Shown: positions 31,817 to 62,152, counted from the first letter of the stretch. The stretch: 64,000 bases of DNA from Lachnospiraceae bacterium (GCA_030538915.1 JAUNTC010000001.1:9256-73255); one strand, 5' to 3'. The notes: generated by a model from the letters alone, not told the origin. A program made the numbers and translations.

Positions 31817-33466
31817 TTATTTAGCAACTAAAACAACAATCGTTCGTTCATCGATTTCGATTGCTTTTTGCTCCTCAAGAGGAATCTCTTTCTTAAAAAT
31901 TCCAACCTGTGTAGATGCAGCCATGTGCCATTTTTTCTTTTTCGGCAAAGCCGGCAGTGCAAATGTATGTGGAATCCAGTGCATATTATATGCGACATAG
32001 CAATCCTGCGCCTGCAAGGATGCTCCACTATAATAAACGCCTAGCTGTCTGCTTGCGACTTCTTTTTCTATTCTCCATGCAAATTCTCCATGATAGGAAA
32101 CATCCGGAACTCCACACTTCATCATGTCCATGCCTGTAAATTCACGTGATGGATGAAAAACTTTATATTTTTTACGGAAAGCAATAAGCGCCTTTACAAA
32201 ATCGTGCAGTTCCTGCTGTGTAGAAAGCTTTTTCCAATTCACCCATCCGGTTGGATTATCCTGACAATACACATTATTATTGCCTTTCTGAGAATTGCCA
32301 AACTCATCTCCCGCAAGGAGACAAGGCGTTCCCTGTGCTAAAAATACAAGGAACAGAGCGTTTCTTAACTGCCCTTTTCGAAGATTTAAGACCGCTTTCT
32401 TCCTAGATGGTCCCTCCGCTCCGCAGTTCCAACTGTAATTGTAATCTGGACCATCCTGGTTATTTTCTCCATTGGCCTCATTGTGTTTACTTTCATATGA
32501 TACAAGGTCGTTCAATGTAAACCCATTATGACCGGCAATGTAATTAAAGATGCCTTCTTCGCCGGACAGATGACGCAGCCAATAAGTCACTGCTTCCACC
32601 ATACCTTCATCACCTTTTAGAAACCTCCGCATGATAGTCTGAAAATCCGCGCGGTGCACCATTAATTTACACCCTTTTAAATATGGATCCTCGTATGCCG
32701 CTTTTGTCGATACTGCTGCCGGATTGAGTATAAATCCATCAATATGGAACTCTCTTCTATAATAACGAAGACATTCGATCACCTGATAGATCGGCGTCTT
32801 CTCATAAAATGGCATCTCAAGCACTACTTCGATTTCTTCTCTATGACAGGCTTTCACCATATTTTTTAACGATCGCACCCCATCATTTACAGCCGAGTAT
32901 TCATTTTTCGGCGCAAAATAATACCCCGGGCCATACCCCCAATAGTTCGGCTTATTCTCTCCATCCATGAAGGAATAGACTGGCATGCACTGAATCTGAT
33001 TGATCCCCAGATCTTTTAAATATGGTAATTTTTCTACTACACCTTCAAATGTTCCTCTGTCTGCGACTTTGGAATAACCGTCCTGTGTGAACCCACGTAC
33101 GTGAAGACTGTATGCAATCACATCATCATATGCATGGGATGGATATACATCCTTCTCCCAGTCATATGGTTCTATCAATATCTTACTTTTGTGATCCTTC
33201 GTAAACGCTCTCGTATAAGGATCTGTAAATAAGACCTTATCATCGATCAGATATTCGTATGCTTCTGCATCCACATCCGACACTTTGACAGAATACACTG
33301 CCCCTTCACTTTTTTGCATCGGATATGTGACAGATGGTTCTTTCTCTCCTTTACAATACAGGAGAAGACTACACGTCTCCCCCTTCTCTACTGCAACTGA
33401 AAAACAGGTTCCATCTTCTTGTACCGTTACGCCTAACGGTAAGTGCTGTCCCTGTATACTTTTCAT
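31817..33466 (-). CDS. GlgX/isoamylase-like GH13 protein with degenerate catalytic residues
   Basis: PLG...CBM48-like N-terminus, HVRGFT, NYWGY, GFTLNDLVSY, SWNCG, GDEFGNSQKGNNNVYCQD; catalytic motifs altered. Confidence 0.85.
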   Translation of the reverse strand: MKSIQGQHLPLGVTVQEDGTCFSVAVEKGETCSLLLYCKGEKEPSVTYPMQKSEGAVYSVKVSDVDAEAYEYLIDDKVLFTDPYTRAFTKDHKSKILIEPYDWEKDVYPSHAYDDVIAYSLHVRGFTQDGYSKVADRGTFEGVVEKLPYLKDLGINQIQCMPVYSFMDGENKPNYWGYGPGYYFAPKNEYSAVNDGVRSLKNMVKACHREEIEVVLEMPFYEKTPIYQVIECLRYYRREFHIDGFILNPAAVSTKAAYEDPYLKGCKLMVHRADFQTIMRRFLKGDEGMVEAVTYWLRHLSGEEGIFNYIAGHNGFTLNDLVSYESKHNEANGENNQDGPDYNYSWNCGAEGPSRKKAVLNLRKGQLRNALFLVFLAQGTPCLLAGDEFGNSQKGNNNVYCQDNPTGWVNWKKLSTQQELHDFVKALIAFRKKYKVFHPSREFTGMDMMKCGVPDVSYHGEFAWRIEKEVASRQLGVYYSGASLQAQDCYVAYNMHWIPHTFALPALPKKKKWHMAASTQVGIFKKEIPLEEQKAIEIDERTIVVLVAK

Positions 33467-53088: not shown

Positions 53089-53775
53089 TCAACATCTTTC
53101 AATCTTCCCTAAAAACTCTTTCATTCGCTCGTGGTCAGAGCTAAACACTTCTTCCGGGGTCCCCTGCAGTGCAACGACACCGCCATCCATGAAAATAATA
53201 TGATCTGATACATTTTTTGCAAAATTCATCTCATGTGTAACGATAACCATCGTCATATGTTCCGCAGCCAGATCTTTGATGACTTTTAAAATTTCTCCTG
53301 TAAGTTCCGGATCCAGCGCCGATGTTGGCTCATCAAAAAAAAGTATATCCGGCTTCATCGCCAATGCTCTTGCAATGGAAACACGCTGTTTCTGTCCACC
53401 GGACAGCTGATAAGGATATGCATTTTCTTTATCTTCCAGGCCGATTTTCTTCAACAGTTCTCTTGCCTCCCGATATACTTCTTCCCTTTTTCTCTTCTGT
53501 ACACGAAGTGGTGCATCTACTATATTTCTAAGCACTGAAAAATGCGGAAACAGGTTGAAATTCTGAAACACAAGGCCGAACGTGCCTTCATAGTGGATCT
53601 CGCCAGAATCCGGTATCTCCAGTCCTGTCGCACAGCGAAGCAGTGTTGATTTTCCAGAACCGGACGGTCCAATAATGCCAAGCACCTCTCCTTTTTCAAC
53701 TTTCAACGAAATGCCCTTTAACACTTCTACTTCTTCGAAGCTTTTTTTCAAACGGTTTATCTCTAACAAACTCAT
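53089..53775 (-). CDS. Polar amino-acid ABC transporter ATPase
   Basis: [31 protein letters not shown]. Confidence 0.93.
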
Positions 53776-53786
53776 GACATTTCCTC

Positions 53787-54437
53787 CTATTTATAGTAAT
53801 TAAGTTTCAACTCCAACCGTTCAAGTAAGAACGCTACAACAAAGTTAAATATATAATAAAAGATTCCTGCAAACACATACGGAAGCATCGTTGTCTGGGA
53901 TGCTGCCAGCGCTTTCGATATCGTAAACATCTCCATAATACCAATCGTAAATGCAAGGGATGTATCTTTTACAAGCGTAATCGTCTCATTTGTGACCGAC
54001 GGCAGGATGATCTTTATGACCTGCGGCAAAATGATCCGCATAAAGGTCTGCGACTTGCTATAACCAAGAATCTTTGCCGCCTCATATTGTCCGCTCGGCA
54101 TCGATTCAATTCCACCTCTGTAAATCTCTGCAAAATATGCCGCATAATTCAAAACGAATCCAACTGCTACTGCTGTATTTTTCCAGGTTGGGCTGTTTGT
54201 AATACCAAAAATATAATAAGGGCCAAAATAAATAACCATAAGCTGCAACATAAGTGGTGTACCGCGCATGATTGATATATACACTTTAAAAATAGTGCGA
54301 ACGACGGGATTCTTTGCCATACGTCCAAACGACACTAGAAGCCCCAGTGGTAGAGAAAATATTAATGTCACCGCAAAAAGAATTAGTGTCACACTCATAC
54401 CTTCCCCAAGTTTTGATAACATAACTGCTACTGTCAT
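53787..54437 (-). CDS. Polar amino-acid ABC transporter permease
   Basis: [27 protein letters not shown]. Confidence 0.93.
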
Positions 54438-54456
54438 ACAATGACTCCTCTCCTAG

Positions 54457-54484
54457 AAAAACAGGCCGCCTGTAAAGGCAGCCC
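54457..54484 (-). terminator. Stem-loop between binding-protein and permease genes
   Basis: GGCTGCCT-TTAC-AGGCGGCC then TGTTTTT. Confidence 0.6.
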
Positions 54485-54501
54485 ATTTCACTCATATTTT
54501 A

Positions 54502-55320
54502 CTACTTTCCAATGATCGTAATATCTTTCTTAAACCATTTTTTTGAAATCTTCGCCATTGTTCCATCTTTGGCCATCTCTTCTAATGTTTTTTCTACCTG
54601 ATCGCGCACAGCTTCATTTCCTTTTGCGAATCCAACGCCATATTCTTCTGCAGCAATCTCATAATCTAAAATCTTGAATTTTGCTTTTCTCTTCTGAATC
54701 TGATAAGCTGCAACAACTGTATCCATTGCCACTGCATCTGTAGATCCAGATTCAAGATTCATAAGTCCTGTATTGTAATCCGGAACAACATTCAAATTAC
54801 CAAATGTAGATGAAAGCTTTGTGTTCTTTTTCAAAGCTGCCTGTGCGGAAGAATCAGTCTGCACATCTACCACTTTTACTGCCAGGTCTTTCTCTGACTT
54901 AATATCTGAGTCACTTTTCACTACAAATACTTGCTCGTTGTTAAGATATGGTTTTGACCATGTATACTTGTCTTCTCTTCCATCCATTGTGAACCCATTC
55001 CAAATGCAATCGATTCCTCCGGATTCAAGCTCTGCATCCTTTGAATCCCATGCGATCGGCTTCGCAACAAATTTCCACCCCTGTCTCTTGCACACTTCCG
55101 CAGCAAGCTCCAGATCAAATCCCGTATATTCTCCGTCATCACCGACAAATCCCATCGGCGGAAAGTCCTGGTCAAACCCTACTGTAAATTTCTGTCCGGA
55201 CTTCTTTTCTGTAAATTCCTTCTTTGTTTCTTTCTTACTATCTTCCTTACTTCCGCAGCCTGCAAATACACTTGTTGCAAGCAAGGCTACTGCAAGTACC
55301 ATTGCCAGTTTCTTCTTCAT
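54502..55320 (-). CDS. Polar amino-acid ABC substrate-binding lipoprotein
   Basis: Lipobox FAGC; FPPMGF, GFDLELA, IWNG, EEYGVGF. Confidence 0.93.
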   Translation of the reverse strand: MKKKLAMVLAVALLATSVFAGCGSKEDSKKETKKEFTEKKSGQKFTVGFDQDFPPMGFVGDDGEYTGFDLELAAEVCKRQGWKFVAKPIAWDSKDAELESGGIDCIWNGFTMDGREDKYTWSKPYLNNEQVFVVKSDSDIKSEKDLAVKVVDVQTDSSAQAALKKNTKLSSTFGNLNVVPDYNTGLMNLESGSTDAVAMDTVVAAYQIQKRKAKFKILDYEIAAEEYGVGFAKGNEAVRDQVEKTLEEMAKDGTMAKISKKWFKKDITIIGK

Positions 55321-55393
55321 GATGTGTTCCTCCTGTATTCGTGTGATAATTTTCTTCAATCCGCTCGGCATTTTATTGATTTACCAATTGATA

Positions 55394-55448
55394 ACTTTAC
55401 CACGTTAAATCGCTCTGTTATAGTATCACATAATTAATTTCTTGTCAA
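55394..55448 (-). promoter_or_regulatory. Promoter (55420-55448) with a downstream palindromic operator candidate (55394-55411)
   Basis: TTGACA-17 nt-TACTAT; ACTTTA-CCACGT-TAAATC just downstream of the predicted start site. Confidence 0.5.
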
Positions 55449-55486: not shown

Positions 55487-55514
55487 GAAAAGAGAGTGTT
55501 TGTAACACTCTCTT
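55487..55514 (-). terminator. Terminator after the three-gene unknown operon
   Basis: AAGAGAGTGTT-TGT-AACACTCTCTT inverted repeat. Confidence 0.8.
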
Positions 55515-55515
55515 C

Positions 55516-55581
55516 TCAGCCCGTGAATACCGTAGTTATACGTAAAGTCGCTGCAAGCACCATTGCCAGTTTCTTCTTCAA
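55516..55581 (-). pseudogene. Truncated duplicate of the 5' end (signal peptide) of the ABC binding-protein gene
   Basis: TTG start; (M)KKKLAMVLAATLRITTVFTG* aligns with MKKKLAMVLAVALLATSVFAGC at 55320. Confidence 0.75.
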
Positions 55582-55598: not shown

Positions 55599-56369
55599 CT
55601 ATTTACTATCAATCCCACGATAACGGCGTTTTTCAGATTCCATTTCCTCATCTTCCTGGCTAATTTCAATGTCTGCACGGATATGATCTCGCTCTTCTTT
55701 TAATACTGCATCCAAATTCAGGTATTTTGTATTCCCCGAAAGCATCTTCGTGTACTCTTCCTCCGAAAGTATATGGTAATTGCAATAAAGATATGCCTTT
55801 AACACTTCTTCGTTTTCCTGCTGCTTATATGATTCTTCATAAGCCTCAGCTGCTTCTTCGTACAGAAACAGTCTTCCGTATGCACCTGCCAGACAGGCAT
55901 ATACTTTCGCATAAAACGGCTTACCGACAGAGTCATCCCGCTCGCCGTCGATGATTGAGCGATATACGATAATAGCATCCGCATATTCACCGCTTTTCAT
56001 AAGGCTGTCTGCTTTTAATTTTGCCTTCTCAACCTCTCTTTGATCCTGAAGTTTTTCTAAAATTCCCTGAATCTTAATGATCTCAGATGATGCATACATC
56101 GTAGATTGCTGCAAAATCTTAATAATAAAATCCTCTTCCGTGCAATCATTATCCAATTCATTTTGCAATACATCCGCAAGTTCATACATCAAAAGTTCCG
56201 TACGAATCCACTCACACAGCTGTTTATTGATCAGCGTATGATCGATCAAATACAGATTGTTACATATGTAATAGCATAATTCTTCCAATGTATAAATCTT
56301 AATATGACCCCTGGCAATCTCAAACGGTTGTCTGGCATGTTTTTTATGACATAGAATTAAACTGCCCAT
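55599..56369 (-). CDS. Hypothetical protein with TPR-like helices
   Basis: 256 aa; ADSLMKSGEYADAIIVY and YACLAGAYGRLFLYEEAAEAY TPR-like repeats; overlaps upstream gene by 26 nt. Confidence 0.75.
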   Translation of the reverse strand: MGSLILCHKKHARQPFEIARGHIKIYTLEELCYYICNNLYLIDHTLINKQLCEWIRTELLMYELADVLQNELDNDCTEEDFIIKILQQSTMYASSEIIKIQGILEKLQDQREVEKAKLKADSLMKSGEYADAIIVYRSIIDGERDDSVGKPFYAKVYACLAGAYGRLFLYEEAAEAYEESYKQQENEEVLKAYLYCNYHILSEEEYTKMLSGNTKYLNLDAVLKEERDHIRADIEISQEDEEMESEKRRYRGIDSK

Positions 56370-57627
56370 TGATTCCTCCTAAATGTATAACCTTCTCCGC
56401 CCGGAAATCCGACGCTTTAAAAAATTCTCCAAATCCGACGTCCTGAAAAATCATTTTACACGTCTTCTCATCTAAGAACATCACTTCTATTCGCAGACGC
56501 AACGAATAATCTCTGCGTTCTTCCAATCCCTCCAGAGAAACTTTTTCCACCTGCAGGTCATCACCCGCAAGGGTTTCTACGTGGATCTCAATATCTGATG
56601 TGTCTTCCAATATTACTTCCCACTGTCCGTCAGCTTCATACCAGTGCGTACCCCATGCAACGATCGGATACCAGCCTTCTTTTCCGCCCACGCGCATACG
56701 CAGGCTGATCTGCTCTGTCATACGCGTGTCATCCAGATAAACCGGGCCTTCATTATAATTACGATATCTGCGCATCGCTGTATAGCAGGCACCTTTACTG
56801 TAAAGATTGTTTCCGACAAATGCACGTCTTCCATTGCAAAGAACTTTCAAAGAATTTGGATACCATTTATTTTCAAATGCTGCACCGGTGAGATATACAG
56901 ATGATACGACTTTCTTTTCAAATACATTCTGAATAAATAAACGGAAGCTTTCATCTGCACTTCTTGCTTTTTCTCTATTCAGGACCGGATAGATTGCCTC
57001 CATCTCCTGGATCTTCGCACTGGCTACTTCATCTACCGTCACAAACATGTCCCGATTCTGTCCATTTGCGACATTCATTCGACGGAGCATATATGCTTTG
57101 ATCGTCTGCCCATCACAGAAAAACATTGCTGACTCGTACTGCCATAATTCTTTTGGCTGATAGAACATATACTGACAGAATCCTTCTTTATAATCCTGCA
57201 CATAAATATTCTCCTTATCAATTCCCAGATGCCTTCCGATTCCACGAAGCATCTTCGATAAATCGATCGTTGTATATGGTGTCGAAAATGTAATATAGCG
57301 GATATCTTCGAAATCTTCCAACGTAAGCCCTATAAATTTCGCCAGAAGCCATACTGCATCATGCACTTTTTCACCAATGCGAACCTTTTTCTGTGAAACT
57401 GCGCGCTTAAAAAGATCTGACACAACACAGGTGCCATCTTCAAGCTCCAGTTCCTCGGCTTCTCTTCCGTATACCCATTGTTCGTCTTTATAACCTAATT
57501 TCAGAGGGATCAGCGACTCATTCGGCGCAAACTCAAGTGTCTTAGGCTCATCATTTTTCTCATTGTAATAACTGATCTGACAAGTATTCTCATTCAGATC
57601 ATAACCAATAATACTACCTCTTTTCAC
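56344..57627 (-). CDS. Hypothetical protein with Hsp70/actin-fold-like motifs (DUF5716-like)
   Basis: GTG start; IIGYDL, VYLTG, NLYSKGAC motifs. Confidence 0.7.
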   Translation of the reverse strand: MKRGSIIGYDLNENTCQISYYNEKNDEPKTLEFAPNESLIPLKLGYKDEQWVYGREAEELELEDGTCVVSDLFKRAVSQKKVRIGEKVHDAVWLLAKFIGLTLEDFEDIRYITFSTPYTTIDLSKMLRGIGRHLGIDKENIYVQDYKEGFCQYMFYQPKELWQYESAMFFCDGQTIKAYMLRRMNVANGQNRDMFVTVDEVASAKIQEMEAIYPVLNREKARSADESFRLFIQNVFEKKVVSSVYLTGAAFENKWYPNSLKVLCNGRRAFVGNNLYSKGACYTAMRRYRNYNEGPVYLDDTRMTEQISLRMRVGGKEGWYPIVAWGTHWYEADGQWEVILEDTSDIEIHVETLAGDDLQVEKVSLEGLEERRDYSLRLRIEVMFLDEKTCKMIFQDVGFGEFFKASDFRAEKVIHLGGINGQFNSMS

Positions 57628-57644
57628 GTTATTCTTCCTCTCTG

Positions 57645-60600
57645 TTATTCATACATCGTGAAGAGATTCTCTGCCATCTTCTCTTCTTCTTCAAAGTCCA
57701 TAATCGCTTTTCTTCTGTTTGCCGGAGACATGGAGATCATCGCATCAAGTTTGCCATATTTTCCAATCTTCACTGTGTGTTCGTTCGTCAATACGCGCTT
57801 GTTCGTTGTCACAATTTCACTTCCGAAACTATCCTGGAAATAATAATGCAATTCCTCATCCTCATACAATACAAATTGCTTTACATATATATTTTCATAT
57901 GATGGAAGAAGCATCTCTGTCTTATAGCCAAGCGTCTCTTTTCCGCCTTTTCGGATCTTATAAAATAGTTTTACTTTATGCCCTGCCTCCGTGCGATAAG
58001 AAAGCATCGTGCGGTCATACAGCTGAAGCTCCGTCAGCCATTTTGCAGGATAATCCATATAGAACGGGAAAATATACTGTTTTTCCGTCAGCCTTCTCAG
58101 CTCTCTGTGGAGTACTTCTTCTAGCTCTTCCGGATATTTTTTCCCCGAATAAAATTTCAGCAGTGCGATCTTACAGATATCCGGCAGCGTTTCTTTCTTC
58201 TCACACTCATTTGCAATAATTTCAAATATGTTTGCCTTTGTCTCACGTCCGTTGATCACATACTCTCTCGCAGCATAAGTAAGATATGCCTGCTTCAGAC
58301 GAAAATAAACATTATCTGATAAATAATAATCTTCGAAAATGTCTTCCTCATCAAACATATCTTCCGAAAACAGCATCTGCGTAATGATCCGTTCACTGAT
58401 TTTGTATGATGCAACCTGATATTCGCGAAGCACTTTCCAAAGATTCTTCATATCTTTTGTTGCACCACAATAATAATTGGCAAGATAGGTAAGTGTTGCT
58501 TTATCATACTGATGTCTTCTAAACATCTCATAACACAGATAGGTCAGGAATTCATCTTCTTCGTAGTTTTCTTCTCGGATCCTGCGGCTGCAAATACAGA
58601 ACACATCTTTATCTTCGAAATAATTCAATCCCTTTGCATAAATGTTATCAAAACTCGGTGTCTCTTTCTCTTCGCTGTCTTTCCATTTTCCGACAGATGC
58701 ACCGTACTTTTTACAAATCTCCAAAAACCGTGGCTCATAAAATAACCGCTTTGTCTCATATGGAATGGAATCTGTATAATATCTTCCTTCCACAGACTCC
58801 CAGATGATCCTTGACTCTTTGTCATACAGATAGACAATGACCGGCTCCTCCTCTGTATAAGGTACACGCTGTCTGATCTCTCCGTTTTTCTCGATCACAA
58901 GGACGCAATTCATATGTGGAACCTTTGTGGAAATGGAATACGCATAACAGATATCACGCATTGCTTCCATATGTTCTGAATCCATATCCTCTGTACAGAA
59001 ACGTTTATATAAAACGCGAAGATACTCTGTAATATGACGTTTTCGAAGCTGATCCATTGCAAAATTCTTCATCTGCTCCTTATAACTGTCATAAAGTTCT
59101 TCTCCACCTACTTCATAGGTCAGAAGGTTCGCATAAAGGAACGCAATTTTCTCATATCCCAATGTATTTCCATGCATGAAATAAAGGAAAATGGATTTCG
59201 GAAGTGGTCCTTTCACATTAGACGGATCCAGTGTATTCATATAATACTCATAAAGCTGGGCAATCTTAAGTTCGGAATCAACTGCTTCTTGGTACCAATG
59301 AAAATATTTCTTCTGGCACTTATTTCCCTTGATCAGCAAAATACAGATTGTATTAAGGATCATCGGTTCTTTGTACACTTTATAAATACGCTCCAGTATG
59401 CGAAACAAAAGATCACTATAGGACTTATGCTGGCTTGCAAAATTGGCCAGGTACAGTGCTAATTCCTTTGTCATCAGCCGATACTTTGCAGCAAAGTTCA
59501 TAACTTGCAATTCGAATTTTCCAAGCTTTTTAAGAAGCGTCGGTTTTGCCTGATAGCAAAGATATGCCTCCAGATAGAACATCACTCCATGTGTCTCGAA
59601 TTCAAACTGCTGCTCTAACACTTCCAGTCGTTTATACGGATTTTTATAGCGGTCATCAATCTGCAAGATCATATAAAGAAGCAGCCAGGAATCCTGATGA
59701 CGCATATAGGTCTTGCCAATCTCATCTAATACACGCTCCATATGGCTGTCATTTTCACGAATCATCGCTGTCAAAAACAGATAATAGCAATTTGTGATTG
59801 GGTCTTTTCCGATTGCGAATCGATTGTAATTATAGTTTTCAAGGATCCACTTTGCATCATCGATTCTTTTACCGATAATGTAAACATGAGCCTGTAAGAG
59901 CTGATAAAATTCACTCATCGGCTTAATCCGTCGGATGGCAGCTACATTCTCAATTGCATTCTCTACCCATGTATCAAGATCAATACGGCCCGCCATATAT
60001 CCGACATATTCTTTCAAAGACTGCGCATACAATAGTTCCGGCATATAATGTTCTTCATCATATTCCTGATTCTGCAACACTTCAATCTCATAAGATAATG
60101 TCTCATACGGTGTAATGAAACGGATCGTTCCATAGTTTTTTCCACCATGCAGAAACTCCGGACGTACAAGGTATTCCATCTCATAACTGTTACCGATGAA
60201 ATCTTCTGTCGTCAGATCTGGCTTTGATACACGAAGGAAATCTCCTTCTGTCTCGATATGGATCGGCATGAATCCCCATGTATTTTTCATGATGGTGATT
60301 GTTCCCTTATTCGACTCCTTAATATCTTCAAAAAGCATTCCTTCACCCTGGAGGGTAAGGAAAATACATTCTTTCTGCTTAATGCCGACAAGGAATTCTT
60401 CCATTGCCTGTTCTCCGAGTGACCATTTTCTCATATTGTCATAAAGATAGAAAATGCGTTCATTCTCATACTTGACGATTTCGTAAAATTCTCTTGAGCG
60501 GAACAGTCTTCCCGCCTCGGAAAAATCTTTGATCGCAAGTTTACGAAAATCATCTGTGCTCTGCACTTTACCATAGGTCGTCATAACATATGGCTTCTCA

Positions 60601-60935
60601 ATGATTGCTGTAAAGGCAAGTTCATATTCTCCTCCGGAACATACAACTGTGATTTTTCCGCGTTCTACGTGTCCTGGCTTTAGCCCTTTACCATCATAAG
60701 TAAATTCAATTCTAGTGGAAACTCCTTCGAATCCTTGATCTTTAAAATGAAGACGAAAAGAAGACGGGTACAAGATCCCCCGTATCTTTCTGTCGTTATT
60801 ACTTTTTATTTGGAAACTTCCTCTGTATACTTCACCTTCGCCAATGATCATGACAAGATTGGTCTCTTCGAACACAACCTCCGGCTGTTCTACACCGAAA
60901 TCTCCTTTTGAAAATCTTTGTATTTTATTTTTCAA
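57645..60935 (-). CDS. Large hypothetical protein (DUF5717-like)
   Basis: 1096-aa uninterrupted ORF, TTG start; beta-rich N-terminus, Tyr/Leu-rich helical middle; no signal peptide. Confidence 0.75.
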   Translation of the reverse strand: MKNKIQRFSKGDFGVEQPEVVFEETNLVMIIGEGEVYRGSFQIKSNNDRKIRGILYPSSFRLHFKDQGFEGVSTRIEFTYDGKGLKPGHVERGKITVVCSGGEYELAFTAIIEKPYVMTTYGKVQSTDDFRKLAIKDFSEAGRLFRSREFYEIVKYENERIFYLYDNMRKWSLGEQAMEEFLVGIKQKECIFLTLQGEGMLFEDIKESNKGTITIMKNTWGFMPIHIETEGDFLRVSKPDLTTEDFIGNSYEMEYLVRPEFLHGGKNYGTIRFITPYETLSYEIEVLQNQEYDEEHYMPELLYAQSLKEYVGYMAGRIDLDTWVENAIENVAAIRRIKPMSEFYQLLQAHVYIIGKRIDDAKWILENYNYNRFAIGKDPITNCYYLFLTAMIRENDSHMERVLDEIGKTYMRHQDSWLLLYMILQIDDRYKNPYKRLEVLEQQFEFETHGVMFYLEAYLCYQAKPTLLKKLGKFELQVMNFAAKYRLMTKELALYLANFASQHKSYSDLLFRILERIYKVYKEPMILNTICILLIKGNKCQKKYFHWYQEAVDSELKIAQLYEYYMNTLDPSNVKGPLPKSIFLYFMHGNTLGYEKIAFLYANLLTYEVGGEELYDSYKEQMKNFAMDQLRKRHITEYLRVLYKRFCTEDMDSEHMEAMRDICYAYSISTKVPHMNCVLVIEKNGEIRQRVPYTEEEPVIVYLYDKESRIIWESVEGRYYTDSIPYETKRLFYEPRFLEICKKYGASVGKWKDSEEKETPSFDNIYAKGLNYFEDKDVFCICSRRIREENYEEDEFLTYLCYEMFRRHQYDKATLTYLANYYCGATKDMKNLWKVLREYQVASYKISERIITQMLFSEDMFDEEDIFEDYYLSDNVYFRLKQAYLTYAAREYVINGRETKANIFEIIANECEKKETLPDICKIALLKFYSGKKYPEELEEVLHRELRRLTEKQYIFPFYMDYPAKWLTELQLYDRTMLSYRTEAGHKVKLFYKIRKGGKETLGYKTEMLLPSYENIYVKQFVLYEDEELHYYFQDSFGSEIVTTNKRVLTNEHTVKIGKYGKLDAMISMSPANRRKAIMDFEEEEKMAENLFTMYE

Positions 60936-61063
60936 GACTTACACCTGCATCTTTCGTTGCTTTTTGTAGAAAACATACTATAATGAATTATAGCATTGTT
61001 TGTTCGGTAATTGCAATGCCGTAAGAATAAAATCTAAGCATAACCTTAGAAAGGAGCATTGAT

Positions 61064-62152
61064 ATGGATAAAAAACCCGAATTTCATGGAAGTGATCTAG
61101 AACAGATCGAAGCTTATTATCACATTCCAAAAGAAGAAATTGTCTCTTTCGGAGCCAATGTAAATCCCCTTGGATTGTCTAAAAAATTAAAGAATGACCT
61201 GGCTTCACACCTTGACATTATTACCCGCTACCCGGACCGTGACTACAAAGATTTAAAAAAAGCGATCAGCACTTATACTGGTGTAGCAAGTAAACACATC
61301 GTAATCGGAAACGGATCAACAGAATTGATCTCTCTGCTTATTTCTACACGCGCCCCTAAAAAAACTTTAGTTCTTGGGCCTACTTATTCCGAATACGCAA
61401 GAGAGTTGTCATTGAACGGTGGATCTATGGATTTTTACAATCTAAAAAAGGAGCAGGGCTTCCAACTCGATGTAGACGATTTTATCCACACATTAAAAGG
61501 GGATTATGAGTTGGCGATCATCTGCAATCCAAACAATCCGACCTCTTCTGCCCTTACAACAGATGAAATGGAACGAATCCTTGCCGCATGCAAAGAAAAC
61601 AATATCTTCGTCATGATCGACGAAACATATGTAGAATTTGCACCGGATATTGACGCGATCAGTGCAGTCAGCCTGATTCCGGCCTATAATAATTTTATGA
61701 TCATCCGCGGTGTATCTAAATTTTATGCAGCACCGGGGCTTCGTTTCGGCTATGGCATGACAAGCAATGAAGCATTTTTAAAAGACCTGCTTCTCTATCA
61801 GAATCCGTGGAGTCTCAATAGCGTTGCAGCTTACGCCGGCGAGCGCATGTTCTCCGACAAAGATTATTATAAGAAAACTCGGGATTTGATCTGTTCGGAA
61901 CGGACATACATGTTTAATGAGTTAAAGAAAAACAGCAACTTTAAGCCATATGAAGCTTATGGAAATTTTATTCTCGTAGAGATTTTAAAAGAAGGCGTTA
62001 CATCATTTGATGTTTTTGAGGCAGCAATTAAAAACCGGCTTATGATTCGTGACTGCTCTTCCTTCGAATCATTAGCCGGTGAATTCTTCCGTTTCTGCAT
62101 CATGGATCCTGCCGACAACCGCCGTCTCCTTGATGTTTTAAATCAGATTTAA
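61064..62152 (+). CDS. PLP-dependent class I/II enzyme, CobD (threonine-phosphate decarboxylase)/HisC-like
   Basis: FHGSD, ANVNPLG, GNGSTE, CNPNNPT, DETY, SKFYAAPGLRFGY. Confidence 0.85.
   Translation: MDKKPEFHGSDLEQIEAYYHIPKEEIVSFGANVNPLGLSKKLKNDLASHLDIITRYPDRDYKDLKKAISTYTGVASKHIVIGNGSTELISLLISTRAPKKTLVLGPTYSEYARELSLNGGSMDFYNLKKEQGFQLDVDDFIHTLKGDYELAIICNPNNPTSSALTTDEMERILAACKENNIFVMIDETYVEFAPDIDAISAVSLIPAYNNFMIIRGVSKFYAAPGLRFGYGMTSNEAFLKDLLLYQNPWSLNSVAAYAGERMFSDKDYYKKTRDLICSERTYMFNELKKNSNFKPYEAYGNFILVEILKEGVTSFDVFEAAIKNRLMIRDCSSFESLAGEFFRFCIMDPADNRRLLDVLNQI

Follow-up and report, generated by a model that had tools for sequence, protein, structure and literature searches.

Two of the three proteins of the system described here belong to Pfam families without an assigned function, and the described systems closest to it are built around Hsp70 chaperones. 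In the DnaK/DnaJ/GrpE system, subdomain IIB is the part of DnaK that contacts GrpE; Hsp110 uses its lid helices on Hsp70; and Ssz1, the inactive Hsp70 of the eukaryotic ribosome-associated complex, is a precedent for an Hsp70 that acts as a partner rather than as a cycling chaperone. Kaur et al. 2020 (PMC7159879, section 29) describe firmicute and actinobacterial neighbourhoods with Hsp70, GrpE and a truncated second Hsp70, in which immunoglobulin (Ig)-like repeats are fused to DnaJ or to tetratricopeptide repeats (TPR). The locus analysed here lies in a 64,000 nt stretch of DNA (the window, whose numbering is used throughout) from a Lachnospiraceae bacterium (GCA_030538915.1, JAUNTC010000001.1:9256-73255). 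Close homologues bear the names Dorea and Lachnospiraceae, in keeping with that family. The locus is a three-gene operon on the minus strand (55599-60935) encoding, in order, a 1096 amino acid (aa) DUF5717 scaffold-like protein (57645-60935), a 427 aa DUF5716 protein (56344-57627) and a 256 aa TPR protein (55599-56369). A preliminary description, made from the sequence alone, had reported three intact reading frames with TTG, GTG and ATG starts, a 17 nt gap between the first two and a 26 nt overlap between the last two, all of which our open reading frame check reproduces. It had also known of no described function, and our literature searches, DUF5716 and DUF5717 included, likewise returned no description of the operon: the Pfam families are already known, and their returned descriptions mention neither an Hsp70 origin nor a third gene nor the longer operon reported below. 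One literature match to the two family names was a spurious motif match on human MAX, and PMC8115291 and PMC8195603 are unrelated to the operon.

By descent the middle protein is a genuine member of the Hsp70 superfamily, derived from DnaK. We estimate a probability of roughly 55% that the trio forms a constitutive, ATP-independent cytoplasmic platform that holds or organises a specific client, and that it is the core of a former multi-Hsp70 machine. The preliminary description had given the label DUF5716 and proposed an actin/Hsp70 fold; the label is correct (DUF5716_C, PF18980, E 4e-102, 342 bits against a cut-off of 34.7), and three lines of comparison agree on the fold. A profile built from 119 homologues matches DnaK structures (E 1e-5) and aligns with part of the substrate-binding domain in a separate segment; Foldseek aligns the predicted structure (pLDDT 92.9, pTM 0.91) with DnaK across both domains (E 4e-18); and its top matches in VIA are Ssz1 (Z 21.8, rmsd 3.4, 266 aligned) and Sse1 (Z 21.5), followed by Hsp110, Ssb1 and BiP, with Hsp70s at Z 19-22 against 15-17 for ParM, actin and MreB. 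A single-sequence structure search of the PDB gave no match, and the ESM Atlas returned DUF5716 clusters first and then Hsp70 clusters at 0.85-0.87, which we treat as a lead only. The predicted layout is a nucleotide-binding fold that lacks subdomain IIB (approximately aa 1-288) followed by a substrate-binding beta domain (approximately aa 305-415), with no lid. Because this beta domain is kept, DUF5716 belongs with the Hsp70s specifically rather than with generic actin-like polymer formers, and the presence of the substrate domain and the loss of the nucleotide-site motifs speak against an actin-like filament protein of the MreB, ParM or FtsA kind.

That loss is extensive. The motifs IIGYDL, VYLTG and NLYSKGA, singled out in the preliminary description, do align to the phosphate-1, adenosine and connect-2 regions of DnaK, and the GTT and DxGGGT glycine loops, which it had found missing, are gone both from the source protein and from the family consensus, as is the catalytic glutamate motif (EPxAA). 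Relative to housekeeping DnaK, GIDLGTTNS has become GYDLNENTC, EPTAAA has become DYKEGF and DLGGGTFD has become FCDGQTIK. Subdomain IIB and the helical lid are deleted in the alignment, and the model stops after the beta domain. Invariant or nearly invariant positions are glycines, aromatics and a segment at 248-280, together with G326, W329 and a DxGFG motif in the beta domain. Since the ATPase motifs are replaced and both IIB and the lid are deleted, a working ATPase cycle in DUF5716 is very unlikely.

Sister families of the order Lachnospirales carry a longer operon. The scaffold occurs in 55 of the 111 genomes of the order outside Lachnospiraceae, and a gene for a GrpE-like protein (a helical protein with a C-terminal GrpE domain) tracks it, being present in 54 of the 111 and in none of 10 Lachnospiraceae genomes. 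At 38 loci outside the family the genes are usually arranged in this order: an optional membrane protein, the scaffold (often split, 400 + 900 aa), Hsp70-A, the GrpE-domain protein, Hsp70-B, Hsp70-C and Hsp70-D, the last fused to a von Willebrand factor A (vWA) domain; the paralogues were recovered at 30 (A), 29 (B), 28 (C) and 23 (D) of these loci, counts that are limited by region ends and broken loci. The TPR gene follows Hsp70-D in all 17 downstream regions, and in 5 of these a two-helix membrane coiled-coil gene comes directly after it. Carriers include Defluviitalea phaphyphila, Epulonipiscium and Tyzzerella. Paralogues A, C and D retain GTT, EPxAA and DxGGGT at 82-100%, whereas B and DUF5716 lack these motifs, although B, unlike DUF5716, still has subdomain IIB. 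Scored against the paralogue profiles, DUF5716 reaches a median of 144 bits with B, 28 with C and approximately 0 with A and D, and in a quick tree, in which the source DUF5716 forms a long branch, a branch with a support of 100 parts B and DUF5716 from A, C, D and DnaK. By these scores and this topology DUF5716 is the orthologue of Hsp70-B, the sole inactive Hsp70 of the long operon, and the trio can for that reason be read as a motorless remnant. We infer that the long form is ancestral, because it is spread over many families and DUF5716 is degenerate.

The ancestor would then have been a dedicated machine built on a core of scaffold, pseudo-Hsp70 and TPR protein, and would have included three lid-less active Hsp70s (one with a vWA domain), a GrpE-like exchange factor and coiled-coil proteins of the membrane. 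Lachnospiraceae would have lost the Hsp70 motors and the GrpE-like protein, and DUF5716 would have lost subdomain IIB. The remaining complex would work purely through binding, and DUF5716 would serve in it as a rigid adaptor attached to the TPR protein. If so, the two operon forms are a clear natural series in which a chaperone machine that had several motors gives way to a motorless complex.

The trio is restricted and strongly retained. In a sample of 200 Lachnospiraceae genomes, one per genus, PF18980 is present in 197, with one match in all but two, and at the level of the class it occurs in 8 of 8 genomes of the family and 0 of 241 genomes of other families, one genome being unscored. A sister-family scaffold profile run on 301 genomes of the phylum gave strong matches only in the 3 genomes of the family, plus 16 weak, short ones. 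Of the three genomes negative for DUF5716, two are also without an orthologue of the scaffold and of the TPR protein, and in the third the scaffold is cut by a contig end. The genes are also conserved together, which the preliminary description had left as a point to check: all 43 loci of the family (the source locus included) have the genes in the order scaffold, DUF5716, TPR, although these loci were picked by their match to one of the genes. Selection on the trio is purifying, with dN of approximately 0.2 for the scaffold and DUF5716 and 0.3-0.4 for the TPR protein in comparison with four relatives, synonymous sites being near saturation. A single-protein query found no relative on viral contigs. 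One genome (G089; contigs C150, C192 and C248) carries two operon copies with DUF5716 matched in two pieces each, which may be an assembly or binning artefact (contamination 4%). In the source assembly itself (G000, 82.5% complete) we found neither a housekeeping dnaK nor spoIVA, both of which are present in its congener G081. Lachnospiraceae rank with the most abundant bacteria of the gut, and a 5.3 kb operon that 197 of 200 sampled genera carry, and that no sampled genome outside the order was found to have, points to a cell function at the level of the family.

In many relatives the operon has a fourth gene, encoding a conserved membrane coiled-coil protein of approximately 400 aa with two central membrane helices (L002:10479-11702), for which no Pfam or NCBIfam family was found. 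It was not detected in G000 or in G081, which is 100% complete, and since it has thus been lost in the genus, the complex of the source genus is likely soluble. A second membrane protein, with three helices and a long coiled-coil tail (L058:12828-14150), lies directly upstream of the long operon at 17 sister loci; a weak match to it in G000 was dismissed as a coiled-coil artefact, and neither membrane protein is related to the other or to the GrpE-like protein (probability 1% or less). A zinc-ribbon/TPR protein (L038:16573-17955; contig C86 in the source assembly), which has a single membrane helix and whose C-terminal TPR part is CpoB/YbgF-like, often lies between valS and spoIIAA and matches no named family above cut-off; it occurs in 117 of 121 genomes of the order and does not track the operon. 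The linked membrane genes, with two and three predicted membrane helices, favour a reading of the trio as a scaffold for cell shape or division, in which an actin-fold subunit and a long solenoid would sit at the membrane, pole or septum and might polymerise, as do the core, single-copy and lineage-restricted character of the trio and an ASH/MSP fold that the N-terminal domains of the scaffold share with ciliary and centriolar scaffolds. We think this distinctly improbable: the fold is that of an Hsp70 with a substrate domain and scores accordingly above ParM, MreB and actin, the neighbours include no recurrent genes for division or the envelope, the membrane gene was not found in either genome of the source genus just named, and ASH/MSP is a common Ig fold.

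The TPR protein consists of a conserved N-terminal domain, approximately two TPR repeats and a helical tail. TPR-like helices had been predicted for it, and the family profile does match consensus TPR structures at positions 120-190; Pfam TPR matches of the 256 aa source protein alone stay below cut-off, and its sister-family orthologues (379-401 aa) score far above the cut-offs. A further search with the profile was crowded out and yielded one generic TPR protein. Natural DUF5716-TPR fusions of 703-726 aa make up 7 of the 150 DUF5716 representatives listed, and it is on these and on the operon structure that the proposed stoichiometric complex of the trio is based. The TPR profile also matches Hop/Sti1, Tah1 and CHIP among many TPR proteins, which, with the atypical Hsp70s Ssz1 and Sse1 as best structural matches of DUF5716 and with an ancestral operon that had its own Hsp70s and GrpE, would suit an Ssz1-like co-chaperone module that recruits housekeeping DnaK in trans in place of the lost dedicated Hsp70s. 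We regard this as unlikely, since scans of the trio and of sister-operon proteins found no J domain, the lid helices and IIB are absent from DUF5716, and the lead of Ssz1 and Sse1 over Ssb1 and BiP is a mere 2-3 in Z. Nor does regulation favour it: a scan with a CIRCE consensus found no site upstream of the operon in 81 of 81 loci (best match 6-9 mismatches), and the same scan found 5 sites elsewhere in the source assembly. Membership of the HrcA heat-shock regulon is accordingly not supported.

The first protein is a direct member of two Pfam families, again as labelled in the preliminary description: DUF5717_N (PF18984; E 6e-207, 690 bits against a cut-off of 25) and DUF5717 (PF18983; E 4e-92, 309 against 25). 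Its predicted structure (pLDDT 87.3, pTM 0.54) and the structure matches agree with the beta-rich ends around a long helical solenoid that had been described. An N-terminal module (aa 20-288; 60072-60878, minus strand, as are the following two) is modelled as two PapD/ASH/MSP-like Ig domains flanking a small helical domain; the two Ig domains are mutually related (hhalign 96%), with structure matches at Z 10-12, and in most sister families the module is a separate gene. It is followed by a TPR-like alpha-solenoid (aa 294-969; 58029-60056) with a beta domain inserted at aa 665-730, and by a C-terminal beta-sandwich (aa 976-1050; 57786-58010) whose one match, to CBM56 (Z 9.1, rmsd 2.5, 78 aligned), does not imply function. 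Compared with most family members, the source lineage is missing approximately 80 solenoid residues near position 745. The scaffold profile matches repeat proteins only among known structures, and homology of the helical domain with the N-terminal domain of the TPR protein is not established (hhalign probability 9%). As modelled, the domains are common interaction folds that indicate no function.

The three proteins had been called unannotatable cytoplasmic products. The second half of that phrase stands, as no 19-residue window exceeds a mean hydropathy of 1.2 and there is thus no membrane helix; the first does not hold for genes 1 and 2, which are Pfam DUF families, and an NCBIfam search of the three proteins adds nothing. 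Purine-rich, ribosome-binding-like stretches precede the starts of genes 2 and 3. The operon ends in an intrinsic-terminator-like hairpin on the minus strand, as had been noted (approximately 55487-55517, -21.3 kcal/mol, z = -5.4, 0 of 200 shuffles equally good), which a simple terminator scan did not report. Upstream, a sigma-70-like promoter candidate on the minus strand (60987-61016; TTGCAA-18-TATAAT with TG before the -10, 10 of 12 matches) is weak evidence, because the region has 45 such sites against 34 +/- 5 by chance. Head-to-head with the operon lies a gene for a CobD/HisC-like pyridoxal phosphate (PLP) enzyme (61064-62152, plus strand); a homologue is found in the fetched region of 31 of 81 loci, in Lachnospiraceae and sister families alike, which suggests an old intergenic region shared with the operon. 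Just past the terminator, a promoter-like site (TTGACA-17-TACTAT; 55420-55448, minus strand) precedes amino-acid ABC transporter genes (53089-55371).

The neighbours at the 81 loci are housekeeping genes (purine, valS, CobD/HisC-like and ABC genes). Another reading of the trio is a domesticated anti-phage or conflict sensor, thematically near the GAP1-N2 systems. Hsp70s, GrpE, vWA, Ig and TPR in the ancestral operon are consistent with such an origin, and the neighbourhoods of PMC7159879 likewise bring together Hsp70, GrpE, an extra truncated Hsp70 and Ig-like repeats with TPR. The upstream membrane protein has ZorA matches as well, but these are weak (E 3e-5 and weaker) and fall in the coiled coil. 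No GTPase or variable effector recurs at the 81 loci, PADLOC 2023 returns 0 families for each trio protein at E 0.001, and near-universal retention, a fixed gene order and a genome-like GC content (0.398 against 0.413) are unlike patchy defence islands; we therefore hold little expectation of a conflict-sensing role.

Still fainter is the prospect that the trio serves sporulation or, together with a degenerate GlgX, glycogen metabolism. The family is spore-forming, some loci have spoIIA genes a short distance downstream (a few genes), the C-terminal domain of the scaffold is CBM56-like, and a GlgX-like gene is found close to the operon at 2 of the 81 loci, and also in the source window. Against this, DUF5716 is kept in 58 of 59 genomes without SpoIVA. 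A co-occurrence with GlgX, which the preliminary description had listed as a point to check, is not supported: a single-protein query returned GlgX-like genes from 5 of 9 Lachnospiraceae genomes, from 9 of 10 in another family, which lacks the operon, and from only 2 other genomes of the order, and they do not track the operon across the order. The GlgX-like protein of the window (31817-33466, minus strand; 549 aa) scores 316 bits against a cut-off of 641 and falls short of the usual length of such matches; L012 and L015 have comparable forms close to the operon.

No RNA sequencing run was found that covers the source stretch; two runs with a small share of it are probably DNA and uninformative. 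In a Clostridium hylemonae data set from mouse caecum, the DUF5717 protein WP_040435173 has a log counts per million (logCPM) of 9.75 and the next gene, which we take as DUF5716 by its position, 8.05, with purB at 9.32, purF at 9.02 and dnaK at 10.74; neither operon gene responds to berberine (q 0.66 and 0.87; PMC7798349). Computed from these values, DUF5717 and DUF5716 stand at approximately 260 and 205 CPM per kb, similar levels of the kind that one transcript would give.

Several observations weigh against an ATP-independent platform. The phosphate-1 residues G8 (98%) and D10 (84%) persist across DUF5716, so that residual nucleotide or ion binding may persist, and the alignment shows changes in the loops making up the peptide arch of DnaK, which leaves peptide binding uncertain. 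The TPR protein is less conserved than its partners (52-57% identity where the other two keep approximately 70%), and its C. hylemonae orthologue, although annotated, is missing from the expression sheet of PMC7798349. Two near-complete genomes apparently live without the trio, the choice of loci favours co-conservation as noted above, and the membrane coiled-coil gene is dispensable, matching strongly in 18 of the 46 Lachnospiraceae genomes picked by hand (15 of which built its profile) and in 5 of 5 sister genomes. The analysis pointed to no client or pathway for the trio. Prediction of a complex between scaffold aa 735-1096 and DUF5716 gave no answer, with a score of 0.00 in two runs and controls that did not fold. 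On balance we retain the platform as our preferred reading. A broader account is more tentative: that Lachnospirales built a hetero-oligomeric machine of four Hsp70 paralogues on a membrane Ig/solenoid scaffold, of which Lachnospiraceae kept the motorless core as a near-indispensable cell structure specific to the family, with a pseudo-Hsp70 whose part is purely architectural. Both operon forms are present in cultured strains, which makes depletion and pull-down tests feasible.

Among known systems, the first two source proteins are direct members, far above cut-off, of Pfam DUF5717_N, DUF5717 and DUF5716_C. The operon differs from GAP1-N2 systems in being core, vertically kept and invariant in gene set, and no recurring GTPase/GAP1 cluster was seen near the 81 loci, no GAP1 profile having been run. 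With DnaK/Hsp70-DnaJ-GrpE it shares a nucleotide-binding fold followed by a substrate-binding beta sandwich, and the ancestral operon holds motif-intact Hsp70s and a GrpE C-terminal domain; unlike that system, DUF5716 is without ATPase motifs, IIB and lid (approximately 11-13% identity in structural alignments), and neither a J protein nor a CIRCE element was found at the trio. Ssz1 and Sse1/Hsp110 are the top structural matches of DUF5716, yet they were solved with ATP or keep IIB, are eukaryotic and have unrelated partners, so that the likeness is best taken as analogy and not as orthology, with DUF5716 as a bacterial example of a pseudo-Hsp70.

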